Below are positions 770-18,125 of a stretch of 18,125 nucleotides of DNA, in pieces. The position numbers and the translations under genes were made by a program. The notes below the pieces were generated by a model, which was not told the DNA's origin, ran no database searches, and worked only from the letters and a program-made list of their open reading frames with translations. How positions within the stretch are numbered: the stretch's first letter is position 1; each line of letters begins with the position of its first letter. Source of the DNA: a virus (taxonomy: Duplodnaviria; Heunggongvirae; Uroviricota; Caudoviricetes); the IMG/VR virus record IMGVR_UViG_3300047493_000037, positions 158,713 to 176,837 of that record; one strand, given 5' to 3'.

Positions 770-787
770 ATAATTTTCCTCTGAAGT

Positions 788-2091: not shown

Positions 2092-2403
2092 ATGAGTTAT
2101 GAGGTTCTTAAGATACACGCTAATGGTCAATGGACTCTAATAAAGAGTGCTAAAGCTCCATATACTTCACCTGAAGGTGGCATCTCAACCCCAAGAGAAC
2201 AGGGTGAACCAGATAATGACTATAAGAGCTATAGAAGCACAACTGGTCAACTACGCGAAGACCATGGAACTAAAGGCTCTATTCATGGCGCACCTGGTAA
2301 TAAGCGCGCGCCTAAGCAGGGTCAAGCTCGTCGTAACTGGGCTAAAGTACCCACAATGCTTCCTTCTGCTGCTGAAGACTCTGAGCCTGGTTTAGTTACT
2401 TAA
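2092..2403 (+). CDS. Hypothetical basic, Gly/Pro-rich protein (103 aa)
   Basis: Clean ORF divergent from the minus operon, with a promoter directly upstream. Confidence 0.7.
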   Translation: MSYEVLKIHANGQWTLIKSAKAPYTSPEGGISTPREQGEPDNDYKSYRSTTGQLREDHGTKGSIHGAPGNKRAPKQGQARRNWAKVPTMLPSAAEDSEPGLVT

Positions 2404-2527
2404 TGCGTCTTCTTACGTAAGAATCTATCTTGTTAATGTTGATATGAGCGATTGGCATATCGGGGCATAAAGTTTTTAACACGCTAATAAGTTTTACTGT
2501 GCTCAAACCAGGCGAACTCTTTATCAT
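2396..2527 (-). CDS. Leu-helix microprotein (43 aa; LISVLKTL)
   Basis: Manual translation. ATGA overlap with the upstream ORF. Confidence 0.55.
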   Translation of the reverse strand: MIKSSPGLSTVKLISVLKTLCPDMPIAHININKIDSYVRRRIK

Positions 2528-2691
2528 TCTTCTAATCTTTTCAAGTAACTCCATAAATAAGCTCTAAATCTAGCCTCTGTAGCAGAATTAATTACTTCTA
2601 AATCTCCTAACAAAATCACGAATGAGCGAGCTGCCCTAAACTTCCACTCTCTTCGCATCTTTCTAGCTTTACGTTTGTGGTTTCCACTCAT
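2524..2691 (-). CDS. Leu-helix microprotein (55 aa; FVILLGDLEV)
   Basis: Manual translation. ATGA overlaps at both ends. Confidence 0.65.
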   Translation of the reverse strand: MSGNHKRKARKMRREWKFRAARSFVILLGDLEVINSATEARFRAYLWSYLKRLEE

Positions 2692-2858
2692 ACTACTGAT
2701 ACATGCCGATGTACGTACTCTATCTCGTACGATGGTACACTATTTGGAAACGCTTCTTCCATGTAGTCAACGCTTGCTGTCTTCACGTTAAGCTTTTCTA
2801 AAAGATCTAACACTCCGTGAACAGCATATACCGCGACATTTAATTTAACATTTGGCAT
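2688..2858 (-). CDS. Leu-helix microprotein (56 aa; VLDLLEKLNV)
   Basis: Manual translation. Overlaps both neighbours. Confidence 0.65.
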   Translation of the reverse strand: MPNVKLNVAVYAVHGVLDLLEKLNVKTASVDYMEEAFPNSVPSYEIEYVHRHVSVV

Positions 2859-3072
2859 TAGGTTCTATATTTAGTTTATATAGCAATATAACCAACCTAG
2901 TATGCCTTATAACAAAAGTTTCTTTACAGGCTTCATGCTTGCATGGTTCTTTGTTGTCTAACGCAATGACCATACAAACCCAATCTCTATACCAACTTGT
3001 GACACCTTCAGCTTCAGTCCATTCACCTCCATATTCTATTTCTTTGCCGCAGTCTTCACAGATTATTCCCAT
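2845..3072 (-). CDS. Leu-helix microprotein with CxxC (75 aa; LVILLYKLNIEP)
   Basis: ORF track 2845..3078, with ATG at 3072. C-terminus resembles LAKLLYLLGIEP of 13176..13349. Confidence 0.7.
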   Translation of the reverse strand: MGIICEDCGKEIEYGGEWTEAEGVTSWYRDWVCMVIALDNKEPCKHEACKETFVIRHTRLVILLYKLNIEPNAKC

Positions 3073-3215
3073 TGCCACTTGCTTTTACCTATCTTTTTCA
3101 TGATTCTTTCTGCGTATTGATAAGCGCTAAAGCTATCCTTGTCGGCGCCTTTTACATTCAAGCGTATAAGAACCCTTATAAGGCAGCTTACTGAACTTAT
3201 TCTGCTTACAATCAT
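3063..3215 (-). CDS. Leu-helix microprotein (50 aa; LIRVLIRLNV)
   Basis: Manual translation. TAATG overlap with the upstream ORF. Confidence 0.6.
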   Translation of the reverse strand: MIVSRISSVSCLIRVLIRLNVKGADKDSFSAYQYAERIMKKIGKSKWQWE

Positions 3216-3385
3216 TAGTATAGATCATCTCTGCGCTTATATGAAGCTGAACAAGTGCCTAACAGGGCAGACAAAAGATAGCACAAACCTCTAAAAGATG
3301 GATCACGCGAATCGCTATACTTCTGTATCGGACCTTTAAAATACAAGCTATGAATAAGCACATCTACTTCTTCACGCAACCTCAT
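3215..3385 (-). CDS. Leu-helix microprotein, subfamily A (56 aa; LCYLLSALLGT)
   Basis: Manual translation MRLREEVDVLIHSLYF...GLCYLLSALLGTC. First gene after the composite element. Confidence 0.75.
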   Translation of the reverse strand: MRLREEVDVLIHSLYFKGPIQKYSDSRDPSFRGLCYLLSALLGTCSASYKRRDDLY

Positions 3386-3390
3386 ACAAA

Positions 3391-3442
3391 TATCTAGTAT
3401 CGGAATAAGGGTTGTAAGGGTACAGTCGGCGTAGCAGTATCG
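3391..3442 (-). promoter_or_regulatory. Composite element, copy 1 (diverged box plus ATYCCGA motif)
   Basis: Plus strand GGCGTAGCAGTATC at 3428, 21-nt spacer, then ATTCCGA-TAC-TAGATA on minus, 5 nt, ATG 3385. Confidence 0.65.
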
Positions 3443-3468
3443 TGCGGGGCGCGATCAACGTAGGTCGA

Positions 3469-3477
3469 TGATATTAT
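3469..3477 (+). promoter_or_regulatory. Extended -10 promoter for the peptidase
   Basis: TGa-TATTAT about 30 nt upstream of ATG 3509. Confidence 0.45.
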
Positions 3478-3508
3478 TCTTGATGGCACGAAGATGCTAG
3501 GAGCTGAT

Positions 3509-4267
3509 ATGGTTAAGAAATTAGGTAAACTTCCAAGAACTCATGATCCAAGAGTAAAGCATATGAGTGCGATGCTACTTGGCAGACATCTACCTACTCC
3601 TCCAGAATCAGTTGACTGGACTAAAGGCATTAAAGACTTTGGCATGATGCTCAATGATGAGCTAGGTGATTGCACCTGTGCTGCGGTATTTCATGCTCGT
3701 CAGATTTGGACAGCAAACACGGAGACAGAAAGCACTGAGCCTGACGCCATGGTGCTTAAGCTGTATGAAGCGGCGTGCGGATACAACCCTGCAGACCCCA
3801 ACAGCGACACGGGTGGAATAGAGCAAAACGTACTTAACTACCTGTTTAACAAAGGTATTCCTTTAGCTGATGGCAGCGTGGATAAGATCTTAGGATACGC
3901 CGAGATTAACTTTAAGAACATTAACGAGGTCAAGGTTGCTATTAATGAGTTTGGATTGGCGTATATTGGAATTCAAGTTCCAGCTAGCATATATGACGCA
4001 AACGGTATTCCACTATCTATGTGGGATTATGTCCCAAACAGCGAACTTGAAGGCGGACATGCGATCATCGTCGTTGGATATGATAACAATGGGGTCACTG
4101 TGGTCTCATGGGGCGCATTATATAAGATGACATGGGCATTCTTTGATCACTACTGCGATGAAGCATATGCAATCATAGATAAAAACTGGATCGCCACAAG
4201 TGGTAAGACCCCATTAGGAGTCTCTTTGGAAGAGCTAGAAACACTTATGAAAGAGATAAGAGAGTAG
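3509..4267 (+). CDS. Papain-like (C1-like) cysteine peptidase
   Basis: MLNDELGDCTCAA (catalytic Cys), GGHAIIVVGYD (catalytic His), SWG, and an N-terminal P.SVDW. AGGAG RBS supports ATG 3509. Confidence 0.85.
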   Translation: MVKKLGKLPRTHDPRVKHMSAMLLGRHLPTPPESVDWTKGIKDFGMMLNDELGDCTCAAVFHARQIWTANTETESTEPDAMVLKLYEAACGYNPADPNSDTGGIEQNVLNYLFNKGIPLADGSVDKILGYAEINFKNINEVKVAINEFGLAYIGIQVPASIYDANGIPLSMWDYVPNSELEGGHAIIVVGYDNNGVTVVSWGALYKMTWAFFDHYCDEAYAIIDKNWIATSGKTPLGVSLEELETLMKEIRE

Positions 4268-4448
4268 TCAACGATCTCTCTTTAAGATAGAAGCTGCCCA
4301 CTCGTTCCACATGCCTCGACTATGTGATGAGTTTTCTTCGTCAGATCTTTTAATGTACTCTTTAGATACCCTCGTTCTCATCCATAAGTATCTGAGTAAT
4401 TGTCTTAAGTTAATCATGTTAAATGACTCTTCCATGAGTCTCGATTCA

Positions 4449-4724
4449 TTACCGAGACCACTCCTTTGCTAGATCATTGTATTCTTCCTGCATAAGAGTA
4501 GTTACCCGACCATTCCTGAGTATTCCGTAATGGCACTTAGTCATGCCCAACGACGATCCGTAAGTGGCACGAAATGCACTCAGACTGATTGTCTGACACT
4601 TAATGTGGTTACCATTGATGTCATGCACTTCAATCTTATAGACATGAGTGAGAGGAGCATCGCCACGATAGGTTGGTGAAGTGGATGCCTTGATAACCCG
4701 AATAAGCTCAAAACCTTTATTCAT
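4449..4724 (-). CDS. Hypothetical protein (91 aa)
   Basis: GGGAG RBS. ATYCCGA motif upstream. Confidence 0.7.
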   Translation of the reverse strand: MNKGFELIRVIKASTSPTYRGDAPLTHVYKIEVHDINGNHIKCQTISLSAFRATYGSSLGMTKCHYGILRNGRVTTLMQEEYNDLAKEWSR

Positions 4725-4763
4725 ACGTTTCTCCCTTAGCCTCTTGCTAAATGTTTATATGTT

Positions 4764-4779
4764 CATTTAGATTCGGAAT
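4764..4779 (-). promoter_or_regulatory. ATYCCGA-class promoter-like motif
   Basis: ATTCCGA-ATC-TAAATG upstream of ATG 4724. Confidence 0.55.
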
Positions 4780-4788
4780 AAGTTGACA

Positions 4789-4817
4789 TTGAAATTAACT
4801 GAGTTACATGGTATTAT
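4789..4817 (+). promoter_or_regulatory. Sigma70-type promoter
   Basis: TTGAAA (4789-4794), 17 nt, TATTAT (4812-4817) with an extended TG. An extra TTGACA lies at 4783. Confidence 0.7.
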
Positions 4818-4842
4818 TAAGTCATATTGTGAAGGAACGTGT

Positions 4843-7497: not shown

Positions 7498-7506
7498 TAA
7501 ATAAGT

Positions 7507-7665
7507 TCAGGAGGTAGACTCTGGATCGTCTCCAGGTCTATCTCCTTTTACTTTTAGTATATGCAATGCCCATTCTTGGCGAGATTCTGCTGGAAAAAAT
7601 CCGTGATTACCATCTATTTTCTTGCAAAGTTCTAAATACTTAATCAAATAGTATAAGTTAATCAC
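7507..7665 (-). CDS. Possible Leu-helix microprotein (LYYLIKYLEL)
   Basis: GTG 7665 overlaps the end of 7658..8125. The 3' end runs through the terminator hairpin, so this call is uncertain. Confidence 0.4.
   Translation of the reverse strand: MINLYYLIKYLELCKKIDGNHGFFPAESRQEWALHILKVKGDRPGDDPESTS
7510..7555 (+). terminator. Intrinsic terminator of the fibre gene
   Basis: GGAGGTAGAC/GTCTATCTCC outer stem, CTGGA/TCCAG inner stem, followed by TTTTACTTTT. Confidence 0.85.
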
Positions 7666-8125
7666 ATACCATCGCTTCTTCAAGAAGTTGCATGGCTCCA
7701 ATGCTTGCCACTTGATCTCTTCCTGAGAAGATACGCGTGAATCTGCTGCGATCCTCGTTGTAGTAACCTACTCCATTATAATAAGCACTGTGCCCATCAG
7801 TACAAACATACCAACCATTGCGCCTACAAATAGCGTTCATCTCCTTGCGATTAGCAAAAGTAAACTTTCCAATCTCAAGTTTTGCCAATTCATTAGCGAT
7901 GTGTGCTTCGCGAACAAGCATTTTAAGTTCACTAATGCTCTTTTTCATGAGCTTTTTAGAAGCCCTTATTGGACCATCTGGATCGTGGGTAATGTAACGC
8001 TTTTTCCAGTATAAATGATCTGCAAAACGAGCTTCACGCTTACGAGCAGTATGCCTCATTGCTTGCAACTCATTTTTCTTATACATTAAGGCACAAAGAC
8101 GAATTAAGTCATTGTTATGTTCCAT
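7658..8125 (-). CDS. Hypothetical basic protein (155 aa)
   Basis: GAGGGA RBS. ATYCCGA motif upstream. Confidence 0.8.
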   Translation of the reverse strand: MEHNNDLIRLCALMYKKNELQAMRHTARKREARFADHLYWKKRYITHDPDGPIRASKKLMKKSISELKMLVREAHIANELAKLEIGKFTFANRKEMNAICRRNGWYVCTDGHSAYYNGVGYYNEDRSRFTRIFSGRDQVASIGAMQLLEEAMVCD

Positions 8126-8139
8126 AATTCCCTCGTGTT

Positions 8140-8155
8140 TAGATAAGATCGGGAT
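8140..8155 (-). promoter_or_regulatory. ATYCCGA-class promoter-like motif
   Basis: ATCCCGA-TCT-TATCTA upstream of ATG 8125. Confidence 0.55.
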
Positions 8156-8159
8156 CGAG

Positions 8160-8522
8160 TTATTGATGCAGTTTTACTACACTCTTAACAACTTTCCAGT
8201 CAATTGGTCCACTGTTTCCCCAACTTTTGCACTTTTCCTGCAGTTGGCGCAATGAAACCCTCTTAACTTCGCAAGATTTCCTTATGCACAAACCATGAAT
8301 AGATCCGCGAGGATGCTCGGAGTCGTAGTGCTTACCACCAACAACAATCCAGCAGTGACAATCACAAGACATGATCTTTGATCTAGGATTCAGCTTATGC
8401 AAGATTACAGCAAATTGATAGCACCAACCAGAATTGATGCTGTATTCACCATAAAGTGGATAGTCAGCACGATTCTTATTCCACACATTAACAAAGTTTT
8501 CAATCAGCTTCTTTGTTATCAT
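8160..8522 (-). CDS. Small putative Cys-His-Asp (papain/transglutaminase-like) protein
   Basis: INSGWCYQFA...CHCW...GKHYDSE gives the Cys, His, Asp order typical of such folds. Family assignment is inferred by eye. Confidence 0.55.
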   Translation of the reverse strand: MITKKLIENFVNVWNKNRADYPLYGEYSINSGWCYQFAVILHKLNPRSKIMSCDCHCWIVVGGKHYDSEHPRGSIHGLCIRKSCEVKRVSLRQLQEKCKSWGNSGPIDWKVVKSVVKLHQ

Positions 8523-8588
8523 TAATGACCCCAAAAATGCTTAATAACCATTCCAACAGCGAGATAGAGACAAAATGTGCATGATAAG

Positions 8589-8768
8589 TCAATCAGTCTT
8601 ATTATCATATTCACTCCTCATTAAGGCTGCTATTTCTTGTCTCTCTATAAATGGGTCGATCTCTCGATCAGTAACCTTGTATTTGGTGGAACTTTTTATG
8701 TCGAGAGCAACGAGTAGATCTAATAGATAGCAACAACATAAAAATGGTCTATCTTCAACAACTCTCAT
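8589..8768 (-). CDS. Leu-helix microprotein (59 aa; YLLDLLVALDI)
   Basis: Manual translation. ATGA overlap. Confidence 0.65.
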   Translation of the reverse strand: MRVVEDRPFLCCCYLLDLLVALDIKSSTKYKVTDREIDPFIERQEIAALMRSEYDNKTD

Positions 8769-8944
8769 TGCTCACTTAATCTTATAGATAAATATATGTT
8801 CAGGAATGAGCGTCTGTGCCGCATTCTACGAGTAAAGTCACCTATGTCGCTATCATAGTGCTTATTACCACAACTATTTATTCCTAGGCAATACAAGACC
8901 CACGTTAGATCTATTGCGGACTGGTGATCAGGCTTTCTATCCAC
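8765..8944 (-). CDS. Leu-helix microprotein (59 aa; LTWVLYCLGI)
   Basis: Manual translation. GTG start overlaps the upstream stop. Confidence 0.55.
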   Translation of the reverse strand: MDRKPDHQSAIDLTWVLYCLGINSCGNKHYDSDIGDFTRRMRHRRSFLNIYLSIRLSEQ

Positions 8945-9116
8945 GACTCATTATCCTATCTACGAAGTCACCAATTGGTCTAGGATCGTGGTGGCGCTGC
9001 AAGACGTCGTCGGCAGATTGAATTCCTAAACTATTAAGAAGAGAAACTAATTTATCAGCAGATATAAGCATAACCCATTCACGTTCTCTAGAAAAGCAAG
9101 AATCATTATAATTCAT
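8937..9116 (-). CDS. Leu-helix microprotein (LVSLLNSLGI)
   Basis: ORF track gives 8937..9137 (GTG). ATG 9116 gives a smaller overlap. Confidence 0.65.
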   Translation of the reverse strand: MNYNDSCFSREREWVMLISADKLVSLLNSLGIQSADDVLQRHHDPRPIGDFVDRIMSRG

Positions 9117-9261
9117 ATTGATCCAGTATACTTTCACCTACAAGGGTTGATAGCATTCGCATAAGCTTACCATGAGATCTCCTCATCTCCTGAGTCCATG
9201 GAGTAGTAGGTGGAATTTCCATCCACTTTAACAAAAGTGTATCAAACTTTTCTCTAGTCAT
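9106..9261 (-). CDS. Leu-helix microprotein, subfamily A-like (51 aa; LMRMLSTLVG)
   Basis: Manual translation. ATGA overlap. Confidence 0.7.
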   Translation of the reverse strand: MTREKFDTLLLKWMEIPPTTPWTQEMRRSHGKLMRMLSTLVGESILDQYEL

Positions 9262-9431
9262 TTGATAGGTGATTCGAATTCAAAACCAACAAGTTTACCA
9301 ACTAGAACAACTAATAATAGTACATTAATTTTGCTCTTATTAGATAGCATTAACCATTGAGGATCATCGCCGTCGCGATTCCAGCGTTTAATTGCTTCAC
9401 GCAACTCCACATCTCTTCTCAACGCATCCAT
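9258..9431 (-). CDS. Leu-helix microprotein (57 aa; LVVLVGKLVG)
   Basis: Manual translation. First gene after composite element copy 2. Confidence 0.7.
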   Translation of the reverse strand: MDALRRDVELREAIKRWNRDGDDPQWLMLSNKSKINVLLLVVLVGKLVGFEFESPIK

Positions 9432-9436
9432 CAATT

Positions 9437-9493
9437 CTTATAAGATCGGGATTGGGGTAGTAGGTTGGCGTAGCAGTGTCAGTGCATGGTGCG
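9437..9493 (-). promoter_or_regulatory. Composite element, copy 2
   Basis: GGCGTAGCAGTGTCAG at 9467-9482 plus GCATGGTGCG at 9484. 14-nt spacer, ATCCCGA-TCT-TATAAG, 5 nt, ATG 9431. Confidence 0.75.
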
Positions 9494-9547
9494 GCCGATA
9501 AGCACAGCGAAATTAGTCTTATATTTCATATAGTTATAAATAATAAT

Positions 9548-9575
9548 GCAGACCCCAGGTTTCCCCAGGGTCTGC
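9548..9575 (-). terminator. Hairpin / probable terminator
   Basis: 12-bp stem GCAGACCCTGGG/CCTGGGGTCTGC with a GAAA loop, followed by ATTATTTATT. Confidence 0.7.
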
Positions 9576-9647
9576 GATGTTCTGCCACACACTCCGATTA
9601 AGAAATAAGTACGACAGCGATTCCCTACTATAAAAGTGGGATATTGT

Positions 9648-9794
9648 TTAAAAACCGTTAACGATATCGTAGACTACAAAGGCAACAATGGTGATGCAGA
9701 TATTTGCGGCTAAATTCTCGTAACCGTGAGTTTTCAAACCGTCACAGAAGATCCACATAACGGGGACAGTAACTGCCATTCTAACTAAAAACAT
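9648..9794 (-). CDS. Small membrane protein (48 aa, two hydrophobic segments)
   Basis: TAATG overlap with 9794..10003. MFLVRMAVTVPVMWIF...ICITIVAFVVYDIV. Confidence 0.6.
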   Translation of the reverse strand: MFLVRMAVTVPVMWIFCDGLKTHGYENLAANICITIVAFVVYDIVNGF

Positions 9795-10304: not shown

Positions 10305-10320
10305 AATCTAGATTCGGAAT
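10305..10320 (-). promoter_or_regulatory. ATYCCGA-class promoter-like motif
   Basis: ATTCCGA-ATC-TAGATT overlapping the stop of 10308..10454. Confidence 0.5.
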
Positions 10321-10454: not shown

Positions 10455-10463
10455 ATAAATAGG

Positions 10464-10510: not shown

Positions 10511-10536
10511 TATTGGTGGCTTATCGCAGTCGATCC

Positions 10537-11019
10537 TTACCCGACCAGGTGCTCGAGACCAGAAGCCTTGAGCAATGCGATCTGGTCCGCAGTGAGCTCT
10601 TTCTTCACAGCGGCAGGACGAAGTTCGGCAACGCGCTTGTCGATGAACGCCTGAATTTCAGCGCGCTCAGTCTTGTCCGTCTTCGTTGCGAGAAGAAGGC
10701 GCATCGCAGCGATCGACTCGTCCTTCGAGCCGGCGCGAGAGCCAGGGTTTTTAGCTTCGTACTTGACGTTGCCGTTCAAGCGTGGGTCTTTGCGCAGCCA
10801 GTTGGACTGCAAGCCGGAGACGTATGCCTTGAGCTTGGCATCGTCATATTGCTTGCTCGAATCGAGCTCGATCTTGCCTTCGCGAAAGCCTTCGAATAGG
10901 ATCTGGTTGACTGAAGCCCGCTGTTCCTTGGTAGGTTGGCAAGCTTCTTCGAAAGAGGTGACACCGAAAACACCGCAGAGAGCGGCAAAGACTGCATTCT
11001 TCTGATTCATTTGGCTCAT
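10537..11019 (-). CDS. GC-rich conserved hypothetical protein, paralog 1 (160 aa)
   Basis: GGAGG RBS before ATG 11019. Strong codon bias. 50/60 identical to 15470..15922 over the RKD..ELxP core. Confidence 0.9.
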   Translation of the reverse strand: MSQMNQKNAVFAALCGVFGVTSFEEACQPTKEQRASVNQILFEGFREGKIELDSSKQYDDAKLKAYVSGLQSNWLRKDPRLNGNVKYEAKNPGSRAGSKDESIAAMRLLLATKTDKTERAEIQAFIDKRVAELRPAAVKKELTADQIALLKASGLEHLVG

Positions 11020-11091
11020 GTATGTTCCTCCAAACATGATTTGTTACACACTTGATTAGTTTCAGAATTATTTCGTCACTAATCACTTACA

Positions 11092-11232
11092 CTACAATTG
11101 TAGGTTCGGAATATTCTTCCTTGAGAAGGTAACTATTTGGCGGGTAGAAAAGTCACAATTAAGTTTTAACTTAACAAGTAAGCATTCCAAGGCGATGACA
11201 GCTGTGACGTGACTTATTACACTATTGCTCAT
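11092..11232 (-). CDS. Leu-helix microprotein (46 aa; LECLLVKLKL)
   Basis: Manual translation. ATGA overlap. Confidence 0.65.
   Translation of the reverse strand: MSNSVISHVTAVIALECLLVKLKLNCDFSTRQIVTFSRKNIPNLQL
11097..11112 (-). promoter_or_regulatory. ATYCCGA-class promoter-like motif for paralog 1
   Basis: ATTCCGA-ACC-TACAAT, embedded in the 3' end of the last array gene. Confidence 0.6.
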
Positions 11233-11399
11233 CGTATGAAATTTCTTTTTCCTTGTCTTGTGGCAAACTCTGCAAAACTGTAATTATTTACTTCATCATA
11301 ATCCACTAAATCAAGATTATGAAGTAGTGCTAATAGCATAGATAAAGGTGGAACAGTAGTTTCCTTGCACAGGCTAAGATAGTTTGATTTATTTGGCAT
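11229..11399 (-). CDS. Leu-helix microprotein (56 aa; MLLALLHNLDL)
   Basis: Manual translation. Overlaps both neighbours. Confidence 0.65.
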   Translation of the reverse strand: MPNKSNYLSLCKETTVPPLSMLLALLHNLDLVDYDEVNNYSFAEFATRQGKRNFIR

Positions 11400-11529
11400 T
11401 GAATAGTGCCGCCTTCAAGTTTAGTCCTGTTAAAAGACTTAACAAATCAAATAATTTATATGCAGATTTTCTGACCTCTGGTGTAATTTCAGCATAGTTA
11501 GCAGAGTTACGATATTTTGACCACTTCAT
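11389..11529 (-). CDS. Leu-helix microprotein (46 aa; LFDLLSLLTG)
   Basis: Manual translation. Starts 2 nt after the upstream stop. Confidence 0.65.
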   Translation of the reverse strand: MKWSKYRNSANYAEITPEVRKSAYKLFDLLSLLTGLNLKAALFNAK

Positions 11530-11530
11530 G

Positions 11531-11674
11531 CTATTCCTTTAAAACCCTATCAGTATAGTCACAAACCCTTACAACAGTTGCACCATCTTTCCAAGGTTTC
11601 ATGAGCTTAAATGTCTTTAGAAGATGAACAAGTCTCATAACGCTAGCGTCAATAATGTGTCTATCTTTCACCAT
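11531..11674 (-). CDS. Leu-helix microprotein (47 aa; LVHLLKTFKL)
   Basis: Manual translation. Overlaps the upstream stop. Confidence 0.65.
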   Translation of the reverse strand: MVKDRHIIDASVMRLVHLLKTFKLMKPWKDGATVVRVCDYTDRVLKE

Positions 11675-11829
11675 AAGGCTCTATCCCTAAATCTGTTTCT
11701 TCTTCTACCTATATAGCTAATAGCAAGGAGAGCTGTATCGGCAATATTAGTAGACTTTGTTAAGCTTAAACTAATCAAAAGACGTAACAATGAATATATC
11801 GAGTTATCGTGACTACTGGAATACTTCAT
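11668..11829 (-). CDS. Leu-helix microprotein (53 aa; LLRLLISLSL)
   Basis: Manual translation. ATGA overlap. Confidence 0.65.
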   Translation of the reverse strand: MKYSSSHDNSIYSLLRLLISLSLTKSTNIADTALLAISYIGRRRNRFRDRALW

Positions 11830-12002
11830 TTCCACGACTTCCTATATCTTTTGTTATAAGCATGATGATTGCCAAGATCATTCATGTCTTCAAAATCCAT
11901 CACATGTAGGTTATTCAGCAGCACCAATAGGTATGCAATAGGTTTACAAACGAACCCATCTACATCATGCTTATGCAGTATTATGTATTTTCTTCTCACC
12001 AT
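11826..12002 (-). CDS. Leu-helix microprotein (58 aa; LLVLLNNLHV)
   Basis: Manual translation. Overlaps both neighbours. Confidence 0.65.
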   Translation of the reverse strand: MVRRKYIILHKHDVDGFVCKPIAYLLVLLNNLHVMDFEDMNDLGNHHAYNKRYRKSWK

Positions 12003-12199
12003 CCCGGATGATACATCTTTCTATGCTTCAAGAACTTAAAACTTCCCAAAAAGCAACGACACATGCCAATCTTCTCAGTGTACTTGATAAGCGTATACCA
12101 ATACGACGCTTCTCTTTGTCTTATCAAAGATATTGCTTTTATTTTGCCAAGAAACTCAATTAGATGCTTAGCATCACTAAAATCTGTGTTTTCCATCAC
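11996..12199 (-). CDS. Leu-helix microprotein (67 aa; LIEFLGKIKA)
   Basis: ORF track. GTGA overlap. Confidence 0.65.
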   Translation of the reverse strand: MMENTDFSDAKHLIEFLGKIKAISLIRQREASYWYTLIKYTEKIGMCRCFLGSFKFLKHRKMYHPGW

Positions 12200-12336
12200 T
12201 TTAGGTGCCTAATTATAAAATTGTTAACACGTATGACACCAGGAGGTGTTGTCTCCATTAAACCTAGGTTGCCCAAGATAACGAGGAGCGAAACGACGTC
12301 ATCATGAATCACACGATATAAACTATAATGCCTCAT
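12196..12336 (-). CDS. Leu-helix microprotein (46 aa; LLVILGNLGL)
   Basis: Manual translation. Confidence 0.6.
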   Translation of the reverse strand: MRHYSLYRVIHDDVVSLLVILGNLGLMETTPPGVIRVNNFIIRHLK

Positions 12337-12565
12337 AGCAGATAATACCAATAACTAAACCAATCACTGCACTAATGCCGACCCAATTGGGGAAGAAATG
12401 GAAATGTGGTCTAAACCATGCCAAGTATGAGCTATTACCAATATTAAACTGGCCAATAGGTGTTTGAATGACGAATGTAATAGCATTCACCTTAATCGCA
12501 CTCTCATTGTCATAAGTGCCAAAGGTTTGAGACCAAGTATATCGCAATTTACTTATATTTACCAA
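12323..12565 (-). CDS. Small protein with a C-terminal transmembrane segment (about 80 aa; start uncertain)
   Basis: WVGISAVIGLVIGIICY is hydrophobic. Fills the gap in the array. Confidence 0.6.
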   Translation of the reverse strand: MVNISKLRYTWSQTFGTYDNESAIKVNAITFVIQTPIGQFNIGNSSYLAWFRPHFHFFPNWVGISAVIGLVIGIICYEAL

Positions 12566-12689
12566 TCTTTAGTTTCCTCACAGTGAAATTCCACGCATCC
12601 ATTCTTACAATGAATGGGTAGATTTTAAGTCGACCTATTAACTCTAACAACAATATAACAGATAAATATTCCTTATGAAAATCCTTCAT
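12549..12689 (-). CDS. Leu-helix microprotein (46 aa; LLELIGRLKI)
   Basis: Manual translation. Confidence 0.6.
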   Translation of the reverse strand: MKDFHKEYLSVILLLELIGRLKIYPFIVRMDAWNFTVRKLKIGKYK

Positions 12690-12714
12690 GAGTGCCTTCT
12701 TTGCAGCAAAGATG

Positions 12715-12873
12715 TCATAAATCGTAAAACTCGCCTGTTCCCAGAAGTGCGGATAACAACTCGAGCAATGCGATCACGCTATTATCATGCGCTTCCTGGC
12801 CCATACCCTTGCAAGTGGGATACCACTCGGTGCATAGTTTATCTAACAGAAAATCTATCTCTGCGTTAGTCAT
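12715..12873 (-). CDS. Leu-helix microprotein, subfamily A (52 aa; LLELLSALLGTGEF)
   Basis: ORF-track entry 12715..12903, with the start refined to ATG 12873. Confidence 0.8.
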   Translation of the reverse strand: MTNAEIDFLLDKLCTEWYPTCKGMGQEAHDNSVIALLELLSALLGTGEFYDL

Positions 12874-13042
12874 TACTTTTATGCCTAACATATCTATCAA
12901 CAAGTCCAGATATGTTCTCGTAATCTAGCGCGTCAACAGGTATGACTATATTCAAGCGCATTAGAAATCGCACTAGCGTTAGTAATTCGTGCTTAAGAAG
13001 AAACCTATTAATGCGCTGCTTAGGAGTTAAGTTGGTTTTCAT
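12866..13042 (-). CDS. Leu-helix microprotein (58 aa; LVRFLMRLNI)
   Basis: Manual translation. ATGA overlap. Confidence 0.65.
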   Translation of the reverse strand: MKTNLTPKQRINRFLLKHELLTLVRFLMRLNIVIPVDALDYENISGLVDRYVRHKSND

Positions 13043-13179
13043 ATGTTATAAAACCTCTTAGTGCCGATAAGCGCCGATAACAGCTCGCATAATGCGGTTA
13101 CGGCATATCGCTTGTCATCGTCGTCCTCATAACCAGCTTTTACCCAGAAATCCTTAACAATGTCTTCCCTAGTTTTCAT
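13039..13179 (-). CDS. Leu-helix microprotein, subfamily A (46 aa; LCELLSALIGTKRF)
   Basis: Manual translation. ATGA overlaps at both ends. Confidence 0.8.
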   Translation of the reverse strand: MKTREDIVKDFWVKAGYEDDDDKRYAVTALCELLSALIGTKRFYNI

Positions 13180-13349
13180 CCCTTTGGCTCTATTCCTAAC
13201 AAATACAGCAACTTAGCCAAATTGAACGCACCACCTCGCGCATCCTCGCTCGAACCTGCCACCCAATGTGCGTTCAACTTAGATATGAATCCGTCTTTCA
13301 CGTCATACCAAGTCTCTGCACAGTTCCACTTGTCAAGTCTGTACGTCAT
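13176..13349 (-). CDS. Leu-helix microprotein (57 aa; LAKLLYLLGIEP)
   Basis: ORF track, with the start refined to the ATGA overlap at 13349. Confidence 0.75.
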   Translation of the reverse strand: MTYRLDKWNCAETWYDVKDGFISKLNAHWVAGSSEDARGGAFNLAKLLYLLGIEPKG

Positions 13350-13594
13350 GGATCCCAAAAGTCGTTTCTCTTCCACACATCCACACTCAACTTAATGAGG
13401 AGTACCCCTAGCACTCGGGTAGTGCGGATATCTACCCACCAGCACCCGTTGCATCCACCTCGAGCGTATGGGTAGACATCCCTCTCCTTAAGCCTATTAG
13501 CCCACCTATACCAATCATGCCAAGGGGTGAAGTATGCACTCTTTGGATGCTGACGGTGCCTGTTATCTTTACACATTTTACATTCGGATGACAT
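13346..13594 (-). CDS. Leu-helix microprotein with two CxxC (82 aa; LGVLLIKLSV)
   Basis: ORF track 13346..13651. ATG 13594 preferred. CKMC and CNGC present. Confidence 0.65.
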   Translation of the reverse strand: MSSECKMCKDNRHRQHPKSAYFTPWHDWYRWANRLKERDVYPYARGGCNGCWWVDIRTTRVLGVLLIKLSVDVWKRNDFWDP

Positions 13595-13671
13595 ATAACT
13601 CGCTGATATGGTTAGGGCAAGGGGAGACAAACCTATCGATGGGCCGCCCACTCACTATACACTCACCTAAA

Positions 13672-13812
13672 TTAGAACTCTGCCGTGCCTATCAACTTAG
13701 ATAATAGCCTACATAAGCTAAACAATGCACCTGCGCGGTCCTGTCTACCCCTTATGGGGAGACGACAGTAGAGATAAATCAAGGATTGTCCTATATCATC
13801 TCTAGATCTCAC
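13672..13812 (-). CDS. Leu-helix microprotein, subfamily A (46 aa; LCRLLSKLIGTAEF)
   Basis: GTGA overlap start at 13812. Confidence 0.8.
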   Translation of the reverse strand: MRSRDDIGQSLIYLYCRLPIRGRQDRAGALFSLCRLLSKLIGTAEF

Positions 13813-13952
13813 AAGTTTATATCTCCTGTCCCTAGGAGGGAGGATAACAATCTTGCGAGACACCTCTCGGAGCGGCTCGCATACGGTGGCAGGTCGCTTC
13901 TAAAGAACCAGTAGAAGAGGAACTTGTCTACCTGCAGGGGAGATGGTCTCAT
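13809..13952 (-). CDS. Leu-helix microprotein, subfamily A (47 aa; LARLLSSLLGTGDI)
   Basis: Manual translation. 4-nt overlaps at both ends. Confidence 0.8.
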   Translation of the reverse strand: MRPSPLQVDKFLFYWFFRSDLPPYASRSERCLARLLSSLLGTGDINL

Positions 13953-14083
13953 ATGAATCTCCCATTAGATATGAGGATGGACAGGAGTTTGCACAGGTTA
14001 TACTTCGGGAGATACTGCCGACTGCTAGCCAACGGCATCACCTGGTAGTACCACTTGTGCAGCTGCCAATCAAGGTCCTTCAC
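13949..14083 (-). CDS. Leu-helix microprotein, subfamily A (44 aa; LCKLLSILISNGRF)
   Basis: Manual translation. 4-nt overlaps at both ends. Confidence 0.8.
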   Translation of the reverse strand: MKDLDWQLHKWYYQVMPLASSRQYLPKYNLCKLLSILISNGRFI

Positions 14084-14226
14084 TGGAATGCTCCGTTGCC
14101 TATAAATAGCGATAACAGCTCGCAAAGCTTGTGCTGAGCGACGTTCTTGCTCTCCCTATAGTTGGGTGTGTTGTTGTAAAACCACACGTCGAGCACTTCA
14201 TCTACCCGACTACGTCTCCCTGTCAT
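14080..14226 (-). CDS. Leu-helix microprotein, subfamily A (48 aa; LCELLSLFIGNGAF)
   Basis: ATG 14226 is the first codon after composite element copy 3. Confidence 0.8.
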   Translation of the reverse strand: MTGRRSRVDEVLDVWFYNNTPNYRESKNVAQHKLCELLSLFIGNGAFQ

Positions 14227-14231
14227 GTTGA

Positions 14232-14297
14232 TGTATATGATCGGGATAGGCCGATGGCGCACTGGCGGGGAGCTGGAGTGCGGCGTAGCAGTGTCAG
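14232..14297 (-). promoter_or_regulatory. Composite element, copy 3
   Basis: GGCGTAGCAGTGTCAG at 14282-14297. 34-nt spacer containing a CGCACT/AGTGCG inverted repeat. ATCCCGA-TCA-TATACA, 5 nt, ATG 14226. Confidence 0.75.
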
Positions 14298-14334
14298 CTA
14301 TAGCTAGGGCCACGCTCAGCGGGGAATAGGAGTT

Positions 14335-14401
14335 GGGAGGGATGGCCTGAGCCTATCCCTCCCTCTATGCAGCGTTGGTAACAGCTGACGTAACACGCTG
14401 C
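14335..14401. other. Two tandem hairpins after the 15209-14401 operon
   Basis: GGGAGGGAT/ATCCCTCCC with inner GGC/GCC (14335-14363), and GCAGCGT/ACGCTGC (14369-14401). No U-tract. Confidence 0.65.
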
Positions 14402-14562
14402 TAGGACTGAGTTGACTGTAGCTCGCAGAAATAACAGCGGCAATCCGCGCTCGGATTCTCTTTAATAGCTACAACATGGGAATGCTCTGGCATGGGGATA
14501 GATGCACCTTCCACAATCTCTTCGAACTGCTGCATCAAGTCTTTATCTGAGTGATAGCTCAT
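14401..14562 (-). CDS. Small protein with C-terminal CxCxxC (53 aa)
   Basis: Manual translation MSYHSDKDL...DCRCYFCE. ATGA overlap. Confidence 0.6.
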   Translation of the reverse strand: MSYHSDKDLMQQFEEIVEGASIPMPEHSHVVAIKENPSADCRCYFCELQSTQS

Positions 14563-14684
14563 TTGCCCCTCCGAGTCCAGTCGTCAAACTCCTTGTTAGC
14601 AATCCTCATGGCGTAGTTGTATCCGCACATGAATGCCACGAAGAGTGAGAATAGAATAGCAATCATTCCATAGGCATATGTCAT
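14559..14684 (-). CDS. Small single-pass membrane protein (41 aa)
   Basis: MTYAYGMIAILFSLFVAFMCGY. ATGA overlaps at both ends. Confidence 0.6.
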   Translation of the reverse strand: MTYAYGMIAILFSLFVAFMCGYNYAMRIANKEFDDWTRRGK

Positions 14685-14836
14685 GCAACTCTCCTCTTGG
14701 CTACGAAGTCCACATAGACTACATTATCAGGTGCTGGACCACTCCACTCATCCACAATATCGCCGTCATGAGTATAGCTGCTTGAGTAGCAACTGCAGTC
14801 GTCAGCGGCTTCATCGCAACGGATACAGTAGTCCAT
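14681..14836 (-). CDS. Small acidic Cys-rich protein (51 aa; CxxC...CxC)
   Basis: GGAGG RBS. MDYCIRCDEAADDCSCY. Confidence 0.7.
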   Translation of the reverse strand: MDYCIRCDEAADDCSCYSSSYTHDGDIVDEWSGPAPDNVVYVDFVAKRRVA

Positions 14837-14846
14837 ACGTCCTCCT

Positions 14847-15209
14847 TCAGTCAGTTTGCTCGAAGTGATTGATGAGATCAGTCTTAGTGAGATGATCTGC
14901 CCAGCAATAGAGTTTGCCGTCTATCGCTCTGAGGAGCGAGATTTCCACGTCGTAGTGAGTGACTTGACCAGTTACTGAGTTAGTCCAACTCTTCCTAGCC
15001 GCAAAGTCAACCACATTGTCCCCAAACTTCTCATGAGCGCACGTGATCACTGTCATGTATGGCTCCTCGCTACCATACACGTTTTCCAGGACAGACTCAT
15101 GTTCAGTATCTCTCAATTCCTCATCAGTGTAGTCAGAGTCAGCAAGCACAATCAAGAATTTATGACCTCTCATAGATCCTCCATAGATTCGGATAAAGTT
15201 GGTGGTCAT
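14847..15209 (-). CDS. Hypothetical acidic protein (120 aa)
   Basis: ORF track. Heads a coupled mini-operon downstream of composite element copy 4. Confidence 0.75.
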   Translation of the reverse strand: MTTNFIRIYGGSMRGHKFLIVLADSDYTDEELRDTEHESVLENVYGSEEPYMTVITCAHEKFGDNVVDFAARKSWTNSVTGQVTHYDVEISLLRAIDGKLYCWADHLTKTDLINHFEQTD

Positions 15210-15300
15210 TTTAGGCGTACACCACCATCCGCCGGATGTCAGACATGTGCTGACCCATAATTAAGGTATATAACCTCGTATTACTCGTTGGTGATGTATG

Positions 15301-15363
15301 TATATAGTGTCGGGATGGGGCAGGGTAGGCGTAGCAGTGTCAGTAGCCCCAAGGCATGGTGCG
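15301..15363 (-). promoter_or_regulatory. Composite element, copy 4
   Basis: GGCGTAGCAGTGTCAG at 15328-15343 and GCATGGTGCG at 15354. 11-nt spacer. ATCCCGA-CAC-TATATA. Confidence 0.75.
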
Positions 15364-15429
15364 TGCAGACTTGATGCGCAATCTCTGCAGTAGATAGAAC
15401 AGGTTGTATAGTTCAGTTGAGACTGTATT

Positions 15430-15456
15430 GGGAGGGAGACGTTGCATCTCCCTCCC
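15430..15456. terminator. Hairpin downstream of GC-rich paralog 2
   Basis: 10-bp perfect stem GGGAGGGAGA/TCTCCCTCCC, 13 nt after the stop. No U-tract on minus. Confidence 0.55.
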
Positions 15457-15469
15457 TTATACTTATCGA

Positions 15470-15922
15470 TCAGATCAGGTGAGCAAGACCCATCGTGCGC
15501 AGCTGCTCGATCTGCTCAGCAGTGAGTTCCTTCTTGGCGGGCTTGAGCTCGGCAACCCGCTTGTCGATGAAGGCTTGGATCTCGGCCTTCTCGCTCGGAT
15601 CGCTCTTGGTCGCGAGCAGCAACCGCATCGCTTCCACGCTCGCATCCTTCGACCCAGCACGAGACCCAGGATTCTTCGCCTCGTACTTCACGCCACCGTT
15701 GAGTCGCTTGTCCTTGCGCATGTGGTTGTTGACCAGACCCGGGATGTACTTCTTGATCCACTCAGCATCGCGATCGCCGCTCAGCTCGATCTTCCCACCC
15801 TCGAATCCCGCCTGCAAGATGCCGTACACTCGGGCTTTCTGCTCCTTGTCCAGCACGCACGCGCCTTCGAACTCGCCGACCACGTTCACAACTGCCTGAT
15901 AAACCGCATCGCTTTGTTTCAT
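15470..15922 (-). CDS. GC-rich conserved hypothetical protein, paralog 2 (150 aa)
   Basis: AAGGAG RBS. Strong codon bias. Homologous to 10537..11019. Confidence 0.9.
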   Translation of the reverse strand: MKQSDAVYQAVVNVVGEFEGACVLDKEQKARVYGILQAGFEGGKIELSGDRDAEWIKKYIPGLVNNHMRKDKRLNGGVKYEAKNPGSRAGSKDASVEAMRLLLATKSDPSEKAEIQAFIDKRVAELKPAKKELTAEQIEQLRTMGLAHLI

Positions 15923-15990
15923 ATTGCTCCTTAGTTTCAGTGTGTATGTATATCGTGATGAGATGTTGTATGTTCAGAATCAACCAACAG

Positions 15991-16077
15991 TTAGACAGTA
16001 GAATCAGCAACCAACTCGAACTCGCGCATCAACTCAAGTAACTCAGCATCGATGATTTCGATATTGTTTTCATTCAT
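15991..16077 (-). CDS. Possible 28-aa acidic peptide
   Basis: MNENNIEIIDAELLELMREFELVADSTV by manual translation: 8 acidic residues, 1 basic. Confidence 0.35.
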   Translation of the reverse strand: MNENNIEIIDAELLELMREFELVADSTV

Positions 16078-16255
16078 GCATTGTTATAGAGTCAGGATTG
16101 TCCGATGCTATGAGCAAAACAGGGCCCGCTGGCCTTGCCTTACTGAGGCTCCCTTGAGTCGGGACCGGTACCCACGGCCAATGCTTTGTGTACATAGGCT
16201 TTTTCTAATAGGTCAACTCAGGTACTGGTACATTCCTAATAGGTATAAATATAAT

Positions 16256-16441
16256 ATGCAATTCCACACGCATGGCCTTTGCGAAAACTTCCACTTGCGC
16301 CCTTACCTCTCGTCATATGCCTGCATCAAGGGTTTATGCCACTGCTCTTGCCACACCAGCGGCGTTGAGGCTCTCTTTACACTTCTCAACAGCTTATCTA
16401 TTCATCACTCACGTGCTTCATACCCATTCTTAGGTGGCTAA
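16256..16441 (+). CDS. Leu-helix microprotein, Cys/His-rich (61 aa; LFTLLNSLSI)
   Basis: 3' part of ORF-track entry 16052..16441. ATG 16256 follows TATAAA/TATAAT. Start uncertain. Confidence 0.6.
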   Translation: MQFHTHGLCENFHLRPYLSSYACIKGLCHCSCHTSGVEALFTLLNSLSIHHSRASYPFLGG

Positions 16442-16442
16442 C

Positions 16443-16625
16443 ATGAAGCACCTCTATCCTGGCTACAATCAACCTTACGAACTCTTGCCACCCCACGTTG
16501 TGAGTGATGAGGGCGCAATACTACTTCACGAGAATGCCCACCCCACTTGCGCCCTCATCCTCTTCCTCAACAAGCTCTCCCTGATACATCGAACAGTTTG
16601 TCCTGTCGTGGAGGAAGATATATGA
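16443..16625 (+). CDS. Leu-helix microprotein (60 aa; LILFLNKLSL)
   Basis: ORF track. ATG 16443 lies 1 nt after the previous stop. Confidence 0.65.
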   Translation: MKHLYPGYNQPYELLPPHVVSDEGAILLHENAHPTCALILFLNKLSLIHRTVCPVVEEDI

Positions 16626-16771
16626 TGGTTCATTCAAGGGAATGTGCTCGACCTCACCCATGGAATGACTGCTATATTAAGTGCGCTTGTAGATGTCATC
16701 ATCTCTACTACCTCATGCATTTCTTAAGGGTACTCAGAGTTTTATCGCACGACTATAGACCCAACATATGA
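16622..16771 (+). CDS. Leu-helix microprotein, Cys/His-rich (49 aa; LMHFLRVL)
   Basis: ATGA overlaps at both ends. Confidence 0.65.
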   Translation: MMVHSRECARPHPWNDCYIKCACRCHHLYYLMHFLRVLRVLSHDYRPNI

Positions 16772-16959
16772 AATACATGGATAACATTGCTGCTTGTATC
16801 AGCCTGTGTCGCGGCCCCGCTGAGACCGACGCGGAATTGCTTAATCGCATCAAGTATGCTTATAGGTCGAGAGCTTATCCCAAAGAGCTCCCTCTGCTGC
16901 GCCTCCTCTCTAAGCTACAACTTAAGTCCACGCGTTGGCACTTCAGCGAGGTCCCATGA
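16768..16959 (+). CDS. Leu-helix microprotein (63 aa; LLRLLSKLQL)
   Basis: ORF track. ATGA overlaps at both ends. Confidence 0.7.
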   Translation: MKYMDNIAACISLCRGPAETDAELLNRIKYAYRSRAYPKELPLLRLLSKLQLKSTRWHFSEVP

Positions 16960-17111
16960 CTGGACTACTTATAAGACCCAATACCCCAGAGTTTCGCAAG
17001 TTGCTCATATTGCTTCTTAAGGTGCACGCAGTAACCCTACCGTACAACTTAGGCGCAGCTGTTTCCCTGCTTGCCGCTATAGGATATGAGGGCTCTGGTA
17101 TACAGCTATGA
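16956..17111 (+). CDS. Leu-helix microprotein (51 aa; LLILLLKV)
   Basis: Manual translation. ATGA overlaps at both ends. Confidence 0.65.
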   Translation: MTGLLIRPNTPEFRKLLILLLKVHAVTLPYNLGAAVSLLAAIGYEGSGIQL

Positions 17112-17254
17112 CAACATACACTCCAGAACAGTGGGACCACATCTTGCCAATGCTCTATTTGTTATGGACACTTAGAGTGAGGCGTAAGATGTTAAGCATT
17201 CATCGCTACACTGCGCTAGCAGGCAATCGAGTTGAGGTGCGTTGGGTTGGATAA
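17108..17254 (+). CDS. Leu-helix microprotein (48 aa; MLYLLWTLRV)
   Basis: Manual translation. ATGA overlap. Confidence 0.65.
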   Translation: MTTYTPEQWDHILPMLYLLWTLRVRRKMLSIHRYTALAGNRVEVRWVG

Positions 17255-17471
17255 GAATTACATCTACCTTAATAAGCTGTTTCACTCTGCTAATTATGAC
17301 GCCCTCGCTAGGTTGCTTAACTCTTACCCCATTCACGGGGATTACAAGTTGGGTGAGGCGCACATAGCCATCAACATGGCTTCTCACTCGTACGCGTTCA
17401 CGAGCGTTCATCACATTGAGCTGGGCATCTTCTTGCACAAGCTTGGACTAAGAGGTAAGGATGTCGATTAA
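17232..17471 (+). CDS. Leu-helix microprotein (79 aa; LARLLNS and LGIFLHKLGL)
   Basis: ORF track. TTG start is uncertain. Confidence 0.6.
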   Translation: MRCVGLDKNYIYLNKLFHSANYDALARLLNSYPIHGDYKLGEAHIAINMASHSYAFTSVHHIELGIFLHKLGLRGKDVD

Positions 17472-17637
17472 GGTAAGCTTTAATGGAGCTACAATATACA
17501 AGCCAAGTTGTAATAGCTTTAGGTTGTTACCCACTTGCTCTTGTCCATCTATATTTCTAAGTAGCACCGCGCCGCTGGCACACTTAGACCTGTTTCGCTT
17601 GCTTCATGCACTCTTGCATAAAGGTCCGTCCCTGTGA
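17461..17637 (+). CDS. Leu-helix microprotein (58 aa; LFRLLHALL)
   Basis: Manual translation. GAGG/AAGG RBS. GTGA overlap downstream. Confidence 0.65.
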   Translation: MSIKVSFNGATIYKPSCNSFRLLPTCSCPSIFLSSTAPLAHLDLFRLLHALLHKGPSL

Positions 17638-17795
17638 AGTACTTTCTCAAATATGCTAACCCTACCTTCCGCATGGAACATCGGTATAATGCCGTCATAT
17701 CTCTTCTGCATCTTGTGCAGAAGCTACGGGTTGGAGACGATGAGATATTCGGGCGCGTAGGTTCTCTTTTGGTACCAGCAAATTATGATGTTTGA
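17634..17795 (+). CDS. Leu-helix microprotein (53 aa; LLHLVQKLRV)
   Basis: Manual translation. GTG start in a GTGA overlap. Confidence 0.6.
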   Translation: MKYFLKYANPTFRMEHRYNAVISLLHLVQKLRVGDDEIFGRVGSLLVPANYDV

Positions 17796-18125
17796 CGACA
17801 GACGAATTCCGATGCTCATGCTGCTCACTAAGCTCAACGTTGTTGGGATAAGACGCGTTAGCTTCTCCATGATGCAGCTAGTTACATCTAACAAACCAAT
17901 CGAAGAACCACCGTTAAGTATTCCCATGGCAATAATAGGTTTGTCACGCGACTTTGCTCAATGGGTCCCAAAGAATCGTAAGTATGCAGGAGAAGATTGG
18001 GGTGACATGGTAAACGTGGACACAGATATCGACCTTCAAAAAATGAGGTGGAACGTGCTCATGCTTCTTGTGAAGCTAGATTTGTACCCTAGCATACCAT
18101 TGGGTGATGGCATATGGCCAGCTAG
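17785..18125 (+). CDS. Partial protein (>113 aa) with two Leu-helix motifs (MLMLLTKLNV, VLMLLVKLDL)
   Basis: Open frame from ATG 17785 to the window end. It is absent from the ORF track because no stop occurs in the window. Confidence 0.7.
   Translation, partial: MMFDDRRIPMLMLLTKLNVVGIRRVSFSMMQLVTSNKPIEEPPLSIPMAIIGLSRDFAQWVPKNRKYAGEDWGDMVNVDTDIDLQKMRWNVLMLLVKLDLYPSIPLGDGIWPA

Follow-up and report, generated by a model that had tools for sequence, protein, structure and literature searches.

Why would a phage encode chains of very small proteins that have one short leucine-rich helix in common and, as far as BLAST can detect, little else? This question is raised by positions 158,713 to 176,837 of IMG/VR record IMGVR_UViG_3300047493_000037, the terminal 18,125 nucleotides (nt) of a 176,837-nt contig from an uncultured myovirus. 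We refer to this whole stretch as the window, and positions are those of the window unless they are given as genome positions. Translation of the window yields 41 coupled open reading frames (ORFs) of 35-129 amino acids (aa), arranged in four operon-like arrays plus a lone ORF. We find that most of the encoded proteins carry a helix, here called the tag, that is selected at the protein level, joined to interchangeable bodies and spread through a lineage of related phages, and that some tagged proteins contain fragments of these phages' own virion proteins.

A preliminary description of this DNA had proposed ORF chains in four arrays. The chains are real and lie where it placed them, with two corrections: array 4 begins at 16052, not at 16256, and runs on to genome position 795, and a tagged ORF at 15340-15447 had been missed. 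The arrays and the ORFs that call for separate mention are as follows.

2396-3385, minus strand: array 1, six coupled ORFs of 43-75 aa, five with a tag above the 99th control percentile and one above the 95th
3215-3385, minus strand: ORF of array 1 that is a distant member of subfamily A (described below)
8589-9431, minus strand: array 2, five coupled ORFs of 51-59 aa, four tagged; the ORF at 9258-9431 is without a tag
11092-14226, minus strand: array 3, 19 coupled ORFs of 44-101 aa, 17 with a tag above the 99th control percentile
12196-12336, minus strand: ORF of array 3 with a borderline tag
12323-12547, minus strand: membrane ORF of array 3, with a hydrophobic C-terminus and without a tag
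15340-15447, minus strand: lone tagged ORF of 35 aa, between genes for proteins of 150 aa and 120 aa; its tag score (31.9 bits) exceeds all others in the window
16052-18125, plus strand: array 4, ten coupled ORFs of 48-129 aa, all ten tagged, at least three with two tag-like helices

An end-versus-end comparison shows a repeat of about 170 nt common to both contig ends, and the assembly is therefore circular. Array 4 crosses this circular junction to genome position 795 (genome ORFs 149-331, 371-601 and 598-795, plus strand) and then gives way to the virion module. The last ORF of the window (17788-18123) itself runs over the junction and is completed at genome 43-213. With ORF starts picked by coupling before the junctions were counted, exact 4-nt overlaps of the ATGA or GTGA type occur at 20 of 36 junctions, close to the 18 or so estimated earlier; the remainder are mostly overlaps of 1-14 nt, and otherwise gaps of 1-25 nt.

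The tag was recovered without any prior pattern. An expectation-maximization motif search on the 40 chain ORFs gave a log-likelihood ratio of 297, compared with 189 ± 4 for residue-shuffled sequences. When each array was left out in turn, the motif from the other three was enriched in the held-out fourth (p from 1e-2 to 1e-8), the controls being ORFs of other frames, 58-aa fragments of long proteins and shuffles. The motif thus stands up to the comparison with shuffled and control ORFs that the preliminary description had put forward as a check. With a matrix built from relatives' sequences only, 37 of the 41 window ORFs score above the 99th percentile of control fragments, which bears out the earlier statement that almost every ORF contains the helix. 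In the refined matrix the consensus is x-x-[SA]-[VT]-x-[ND]-L-[LIV]-x-L-L-x-K-L-[GND]-[IV]-x-[ST]-A. This pattern would form an amphipathic helix, with a Ser or Ala N-cap, Leu residues at i, i+3, i+4 and i+7, a Lys, a Gly, Asn or Asp C-cap and a hydrophobic staple, and the helical state is supported by the AlphaFold2 model of subfamily A given below.

Each conserved Leu of the tag uses all six codons, in proportions like those of genome-wide usage. Because synonymous Leu codons are scrambled in this way, selection acts on the protein. The possibility that the motif is a DNA-level element is ruled out on the same ground. Codon scrambling is also the best available indication, read from the sequence, that the ORFs are translated. 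Dicodon scores provide a separate measure: of 40 ORFs, 29 have the highest of their six frame scores in the annotated frame, compared with about 7 expected. The weakest scores are those of 13672-14125 and of the beginning of array 4. As a separate observation, G+C content varies from 0.35 to 0.51 across the arrays (window 11000-12000 compared with 13500-16500), and the scores are lowest where the DNA is G+C-rich; this swing and the low scores may reflect a mosaic origin or very young genes.

What accompanies the tag differs from protein to protein. Masking of the tag leaves no BLAST similarity (E<0.01) between any two of the 41 ORFs, so the earlier remark that the flanking sequences are unrelated is correct. 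With the tag unmasked, BLAST clusters only a subfamily A of eight members, plus two pairs. The centre of the tag lies at 0.24-0.86 of the length of the protein, and can therefore be N-proximal, central or C-terminal; at least 11 of the 37 tags in the window finish within about 7 residues of the C-terminus. The modules beside the tag include helices, Cys-rich knuckles, a basic N-terminal peptide and sequence without relatives, and several proteins have two tags. Subfamily A is distributed as follows.

12715-14226, minus strand: run of subfamily A members in array 3 (12715-12873, 13039-13179, 13672-13812, 13809-13952, 13949-14083 and 14080-14226)
3215-3385 and 9106-9261, minus strand: distant members of subfamily A, a subfamily that can be aligned along its entire 44-56 aa
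12866-13042 and 13176-13651, minus strand: ORFs inside the run that are not members

Proteins of the run are 44-52 aa long; in each, a helix at the N-terminus is followed by a variable loop and then by the tag, which is C-terminal and ends in L-[IL]-G-[TN]-G-x-F. AlphaFold2 models subfamily A as a two-helix hairpin with a predicted local distance difference test score (pLDDT) of 84, helices at residues 4-15 and 21-38, and the tag as the second helix.

To find relatives of the window, we used as a marker a family of 166-aa proteins, one gene of which lies among the arrays, and obtained 42 related IMG/VR loci. In these loci, the matrix trained on the window has 72 matches of at least 13 bits, compared with 1-9 for column-permuted matrices and 12 for the reversed one, and 66 of the 72 matches sit in ORFs of at most 110 aa. 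The refined matrix finds 311 tagged small ORFs compared with 35 for permuted controls, so that the proposed search of IMG/VR with the motif was productive. A 20-kb locus contains up to 24 tagged ORFs in nearer relatives and few in the most distant, and in one distant relative the tag takes the variant form F-L-A-K-T-G-N. Homologues of the neighbouring 166-aa gene are more readily found (50 matches, identity up to 70%). Tag arrays are thus a lineage-wide feature with fast turnover. The genome studied here has about 25 more tagged small ORFs outside the window, three of them within the head module.

genome 64989-65156, genome 67078-67374 and genome 74408-74563: tagged ORFs in the head module

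A tag-like sequence (L-V-D-L-L-A-K-L-G-L-K-Q-P-S) is also present in a larger, 195-aa protein encoded at genome 43349-43936 (plus strand), whose gene overlaps the start of a GroEL-like gene (genome 43933-45654) by 4 nt.

Some of the modules joined to the tag can be recognized, and these are copies of segments of virion proteins. Two places illustrate this, one in the window and one in a distant relative.

17461-17637, plus strand: sheath-copy microprotein of 58 aa, whose residues 1-23 correspond to the N-terminus of the tail sheath and whose tag is near the C-terminus
related locus L029, 5473-7798, plus strand: row of five fragment genes, corresponding to capsid residues 45-70, a tube protein, the N-terminus of a 2370-aa virion protein, residues 124-146 of a 1192-aa virion protein and capsid residues 233-264

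Residues 1-23 of the window protein are 61% identical in amino acids (E 3e-5) to the sheath protein (genome 6019-8232, phrog_279). At the DNA level, a 21-nt core (codons 9-15) is identical to the sheath gene at 20 of 21 positions, and identity is 62% over the first 69 nt; the 40 nt upstream are unrelated. A word-indexed homologue search gave no candidate for this ORF. Microproteins with the sheath N-terminus and the tag occur in seven relatives, giving eight phages in total. The 16 copied sheath residues hardly vary across six sheaths, whose identity is otherwise 55-75%, and because of this near-invariance it is uninformative to ask whether the copies track each phage's own sheath. Capsid residues 45-75 are found in another tagged microprotein of this genome (ORF 67078-67374) and in those of four relatives. 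Further tagged microproteins contain capsid residues 230-266, stretches from the N-terminus of tube-like proteins, or pieces of the 1192-aa and 2370-aa virion proteins. One protein of related locus L011 (7648-7917) consists of the sheath N-terminus, then the tag, then a tube fragment. Two database proteins, P0001 and P0002, have the order tag, capsid-like block, tag; P0002 is traced to an 855-nt contig only, and its AlphaFold2 model (pLDDT 47) is informative for helix propensity only. The row of fragment genes in L029 uses a variant tag, [FL]-L-x-K-T-G-N.

It is important to consider whether such matches might arise by chance. A match to a virion fragment at E<1e-3 was found for 12 of 395 tagged small ORFs and for 6 of 5013 untagged ones (odds ratio 26, p 2e-10), and 4 of these 6 carry the variant tag. 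All targets in this test were virion proteins, and queries with reversed sequences gave 1 match. The virion-fragment theme is a minority feature in the window, and it is clearer in relatives. In contractile sheaths, the N-terminal arm belongs to the mesh that joins subunits, and for this reason the copied segments are plausibly assembly-interface peptides.

Arrays 1, 2 and 3 are each preceded by a promoter-like box, ATYCCGA-N3-TA.

3395-3406, minus strand: box about 10 nt ahead of the first ATG of array 1
9441-9452, minus strand: box ahead of array 2
14236-14247, minus strand: box 10 nt ahead of the first ATG of array 3 (at 14226)
4768-4779, 8144-8155, 10309-10320, 11101-11112 and 15305-15316, minus strand: other copies of the box in the window

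There are eight copies in the window, all on the minus strand, compared with 0.24 expected, and 13 in the genome, all on the minus strand at 114-174 kb. The distance from box to first ATG is 10-20 nt for arrays 1, 2 and 3. Copies of the box are often as close as this to an ATG, which suggests very short leaders. Because the box is confined to the minus strand at 114-174 kb, arrays 1-3 look like transcription units of one promoter class in the minus-strand half of the genome. The motif that they have in common with other genes of this region would be compatible with early expression. Array 4 differs, in that it is opposite in direction to arrays 1-3 and co-directional with the virion module.

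Searches of known families and structures gave no relatives of the tag. None of 51 members matches Pfam, no consistent family emerges from PHROGs, and ten larger tagged proteins have nothing in Pfam. A profile of 81 tag segments finds nothing below E 0.25 among PDB sequences. The best match there, at E 0.25, is a chain labelled as V-type ATPase alpha chain (7qsu and 7qss, E 0.25-0.37), local at LSYLLAKLGI and not significant; we take this segment of the chain to be its intein endonuclease domain. Among 1.84 billion representative proteins, the tag profile has five matches, namely four double-tag microproteins and one unrelated repeat protein. A search of the ESM Atlas with one member gave no usable match, and we found no description of such arrays in the full text of the literature. 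The suggestion that this system might be undescribed is therefore consistent with Pfam, PHROGs, the PDB and the papers searched.

The interpretation that we favor, with a probability of roughly one half, is that the tag provides one common protein-protein contact and that the variable body provides specificity. The tag would stand before or after small modules that are otherwise unrelated; the common contact would be docking to a single putative partner or association of tag with tag; the variable module would supply the specificity; and each genome would encode a library of about 60 adaptor- or mimic-like peptides. The role of the tag as an interaction surface, the identity of a partner and the timing of expression are matters that we infer. 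The preliminary description had imagined a constant helix fused to variable recognition segments. This architecture is supported by the variable position of the tag, the unrelated modules and the lineage-wide spread, and the idea of recognition segments fits because some modules copy sheath, capsid and tube-like segments. A role of the microproteins against host defence is conceivable, as a matter of speculation.

A more specific version, which we consider rather unlikely, is that the tag is the handle of a phage-encoded bait library with one partner, in which each microprotein presents a different short bait, some baits being copied from the best-conserved assembly-interface regions of sheath, tube and capsid. 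Such a library could tie up or inactivate host sensors, sabotage assembly in rival phages, or set the timing of assembly in the phage itself. Sheath, tube and capsid are kinds of core protein that bacterial immune sensors see (PMC13581612). If this version were true, the bait library would represent a natural adaptor or decoy system, capable of evolving and of a type undescribed for bacterial viruses.

A number of findings weigh against a common contact. The partner is putative, the phage is uncultured, and expression of the arrays is predicted from the DNA. A single tag holds too little information to be traced beyond the lineage. In the 42 loci, homologues (30-55% identity) can be detected for only 14 of the 41 window ORFs. 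A significant match to a fragment of one of the phage's own proteins is present in only 1 of the 41, and a virion fragment can be detected in only about 3% of tagged ORFs overall. In addition, the annotated frame is not the best-scoring one for 11 of 40 ORFs, and coding scores in the arrays are below those of ordinary genes. Lastly, the subfamily A model packs the tag on the protein's own N-terminal helix; the tag may, in such a model, be the core of a fold rather than a free docking element. This packing would also suit an ordinary, very divergent family of paralogues descended from one two-helix mini-fold, with the Leu helix as the surviving core and with members that each act singly on a separate host target, in the manner of classical early genes for host takeover or anti-defence, and that have no common partner. 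Subfamily A is a clear tandem run of paralogues modelled as a helical hairpin, the arrays are tandem and coupled, and turnover is fast relative to the neighbouring 166-aa gene. However, paralogy of this kind does not readily explain a tag that varies in position and stands on either side of unrelated modules, including sheath, capsid and tube copies, nor the several proteins with two tags, nor the lack of similarity beyond the tag. We regard such a family as possible, at odds well below even. The low coding scores, and the fact that most of the ORFs are orphans, might instead mean that the ORFs are not genes and that the motif comes from base composition or from a repeated DNA or RNA element. 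This explanation is scarcely tenable and already close to refuted: Leu codons are scrambled, the motif is not found in other frames, shuffles or permuted matrices, the 29 of 40 ORFs that score best in their own frame far exceed the number expected, 14 ORFs have protein-level homologues in other phages, and the ATGA coupling is regular.

Two further explanations concern what the tag itself might do. It could be an address or turnover signal, directing proteins to the prohead, the membrane or a protease. A short tag on heterogeneous small proteins follows the logic of the T4 capsid targeting sequence, there are the three tagged genes inside the head module, and array 4 leads into the virion module. 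However, the tag is not N-terminal, and we noticed no conserved adjoining protease-site motif, although none was specifically sought; the box of arrays 1-3 is common only to minus-strand genes at 114-174 kb and not to the plus-strand virion module; and, for a membrane address, the tag lacks the length to cross a membrane, and its residues at positions 6, 7 and 9 are too polar to do so. An address signal thus seems quite improbable to us. Still further down the scale, and very improbable, is the idea that the proteins are degenerate DNA-binding domains (helix-turn-helix or helix-extension-helix) or decayed pieces of LAGLIDADG homing endonucleases. The sequence L-L-x-[KR]-L-G-I-x-S does resemble helix 2 and the turn of a helix-turn-helix, as well as the LAGLIDADG helix, and the best PDB match presumably falls in an intein endonuclease domain. 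Neither this match nor the other PDB matches are significant, however, none of the 51 members matches a Pfam helix-turn-helix or LAGLIDADG family even at E<=1, and the tags that end within about 7 residues of the C-terminus (at least 11 in the window) leave no room for a recognition helix.

The remainder of the window and its surroundings give the context in which the arrays are found. A megablast search of the whole window against phage records had no match, and the phage is without a close relative in culture; its major capsid protein shows about 32% identity to capsid proteins of the SPO1 type. Ordinary genes of the window encode a 904-aa tail-like protein, a 257-aa protein of phrog_19005 and a fatty-acid hydroxylase. 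The family used as a marker above is represented by these genes:

10537-11037, minus strand: 166-aa protein of a multi-copy viral family, inside the arrays here and in relatives, and relevant as context only
15470-15922, minus strand: second copy of this family of 150-166 aa
genome 156806-157300, minus strand: further copy of the family

This family has an invariant block, K-N-P-G-S-R-x-G, is present in 2-3 copies per related phage and is widespread in viral contigs, and has no match in Pfam, PHROG or PDB. An additional point concerns a 103-aa ORF at 2092-2403 (plus strand), whose N-terminus resembles residues 120-139 of a 345-aa protein (genome 144713-145750) in the motif N-G-Q-W-[ST]-L. The motif recurs in two further places, genome ORF 48205-48747 and one small ORF from related locus L005, and may be another peptide common to several proteins of this phage.

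Among known systems, the host-takeover module of Bacillus phage SPO1 (gp37-gp60, in the terminal redundancy) is like the arrays in having many small genes in divergent operons at the end of a large myovirus genome. However, only 2 of 29 annotated products of the SPO1 terminal region reach at least 8 bits with the tag matrix, so there is no common tag; coupling is looser among the SPO1 genes, which are not known to include copies of virion proteins. No PHROG is common to the tagged ORFs and SPO1 gp37-gp60. The capsid targeting sequence (CTS) of phage T4, found in IPI, IPII, IPIII and Alt, is alike in being a short peptide common to otherwise unrelated small proteins, which implies one receptor. 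The T4 CTS is strictly N-terminal, is cut by the prohead protease and belongs to late-expressed proteins. In contrast, the tag is internal or C-terminal and occurs in about 60 genes rather than a handful, and we noticed no cleavage motif, although it was not specifically sought.

Other parallels come from outside phages. In eukaryotes, microProteins or small interfering peptides reproduce a single contact segment taken from a larger protein, and so may compete for native contacts; an example is MIF1, which acts on ZHD5 (PMC3020774). Inhibitory protein fragments (PMC10769210) follow the same principle, and the tagged members with sheath, capsid and tube fragments match both in this copying. Those proteins differ in being eukaryotic or laboratory-made and in having no common tag, whereas the proteins described here are phage-encoded and carry a common helix, and most have no recognizable fragment; copying of a segment from the same genome is seen in a subset of tagged ORFs only. 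The multigene families of African swine fever virus and the host-range families of poxviruses are likewise large, fast-evolving tandem expansions near genome ends, but their members are larger and have a whole fold in common, whereas here it is only a helix of 14-20 residues.

The arrays are an undescribed variant of phage small-gene arrays and of tagged small proteins, with three unusual features: one selected helix, interchangeable bodies, and some bodies that copy the best-conserved segments of sheath, tube-like and capsid proteins of the phage itself. With about 60 genes per genome across a lineage of phages of about 170 kb, they represent a class that annotation pipelines mostly miss. They suggest that phages build libraries of short interaction peptides on one handle. 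If this handle has one partner, a mode of action could be assigned to hundreds of orphan genes at once, and the libraries would be a natural counterpart to laboratory screens of inhibitory fragments. The members with virion fragments raise a testable question, which is whether such self-mimics are directed against host sensors, are directed against rival phages, or serve to control assembly.

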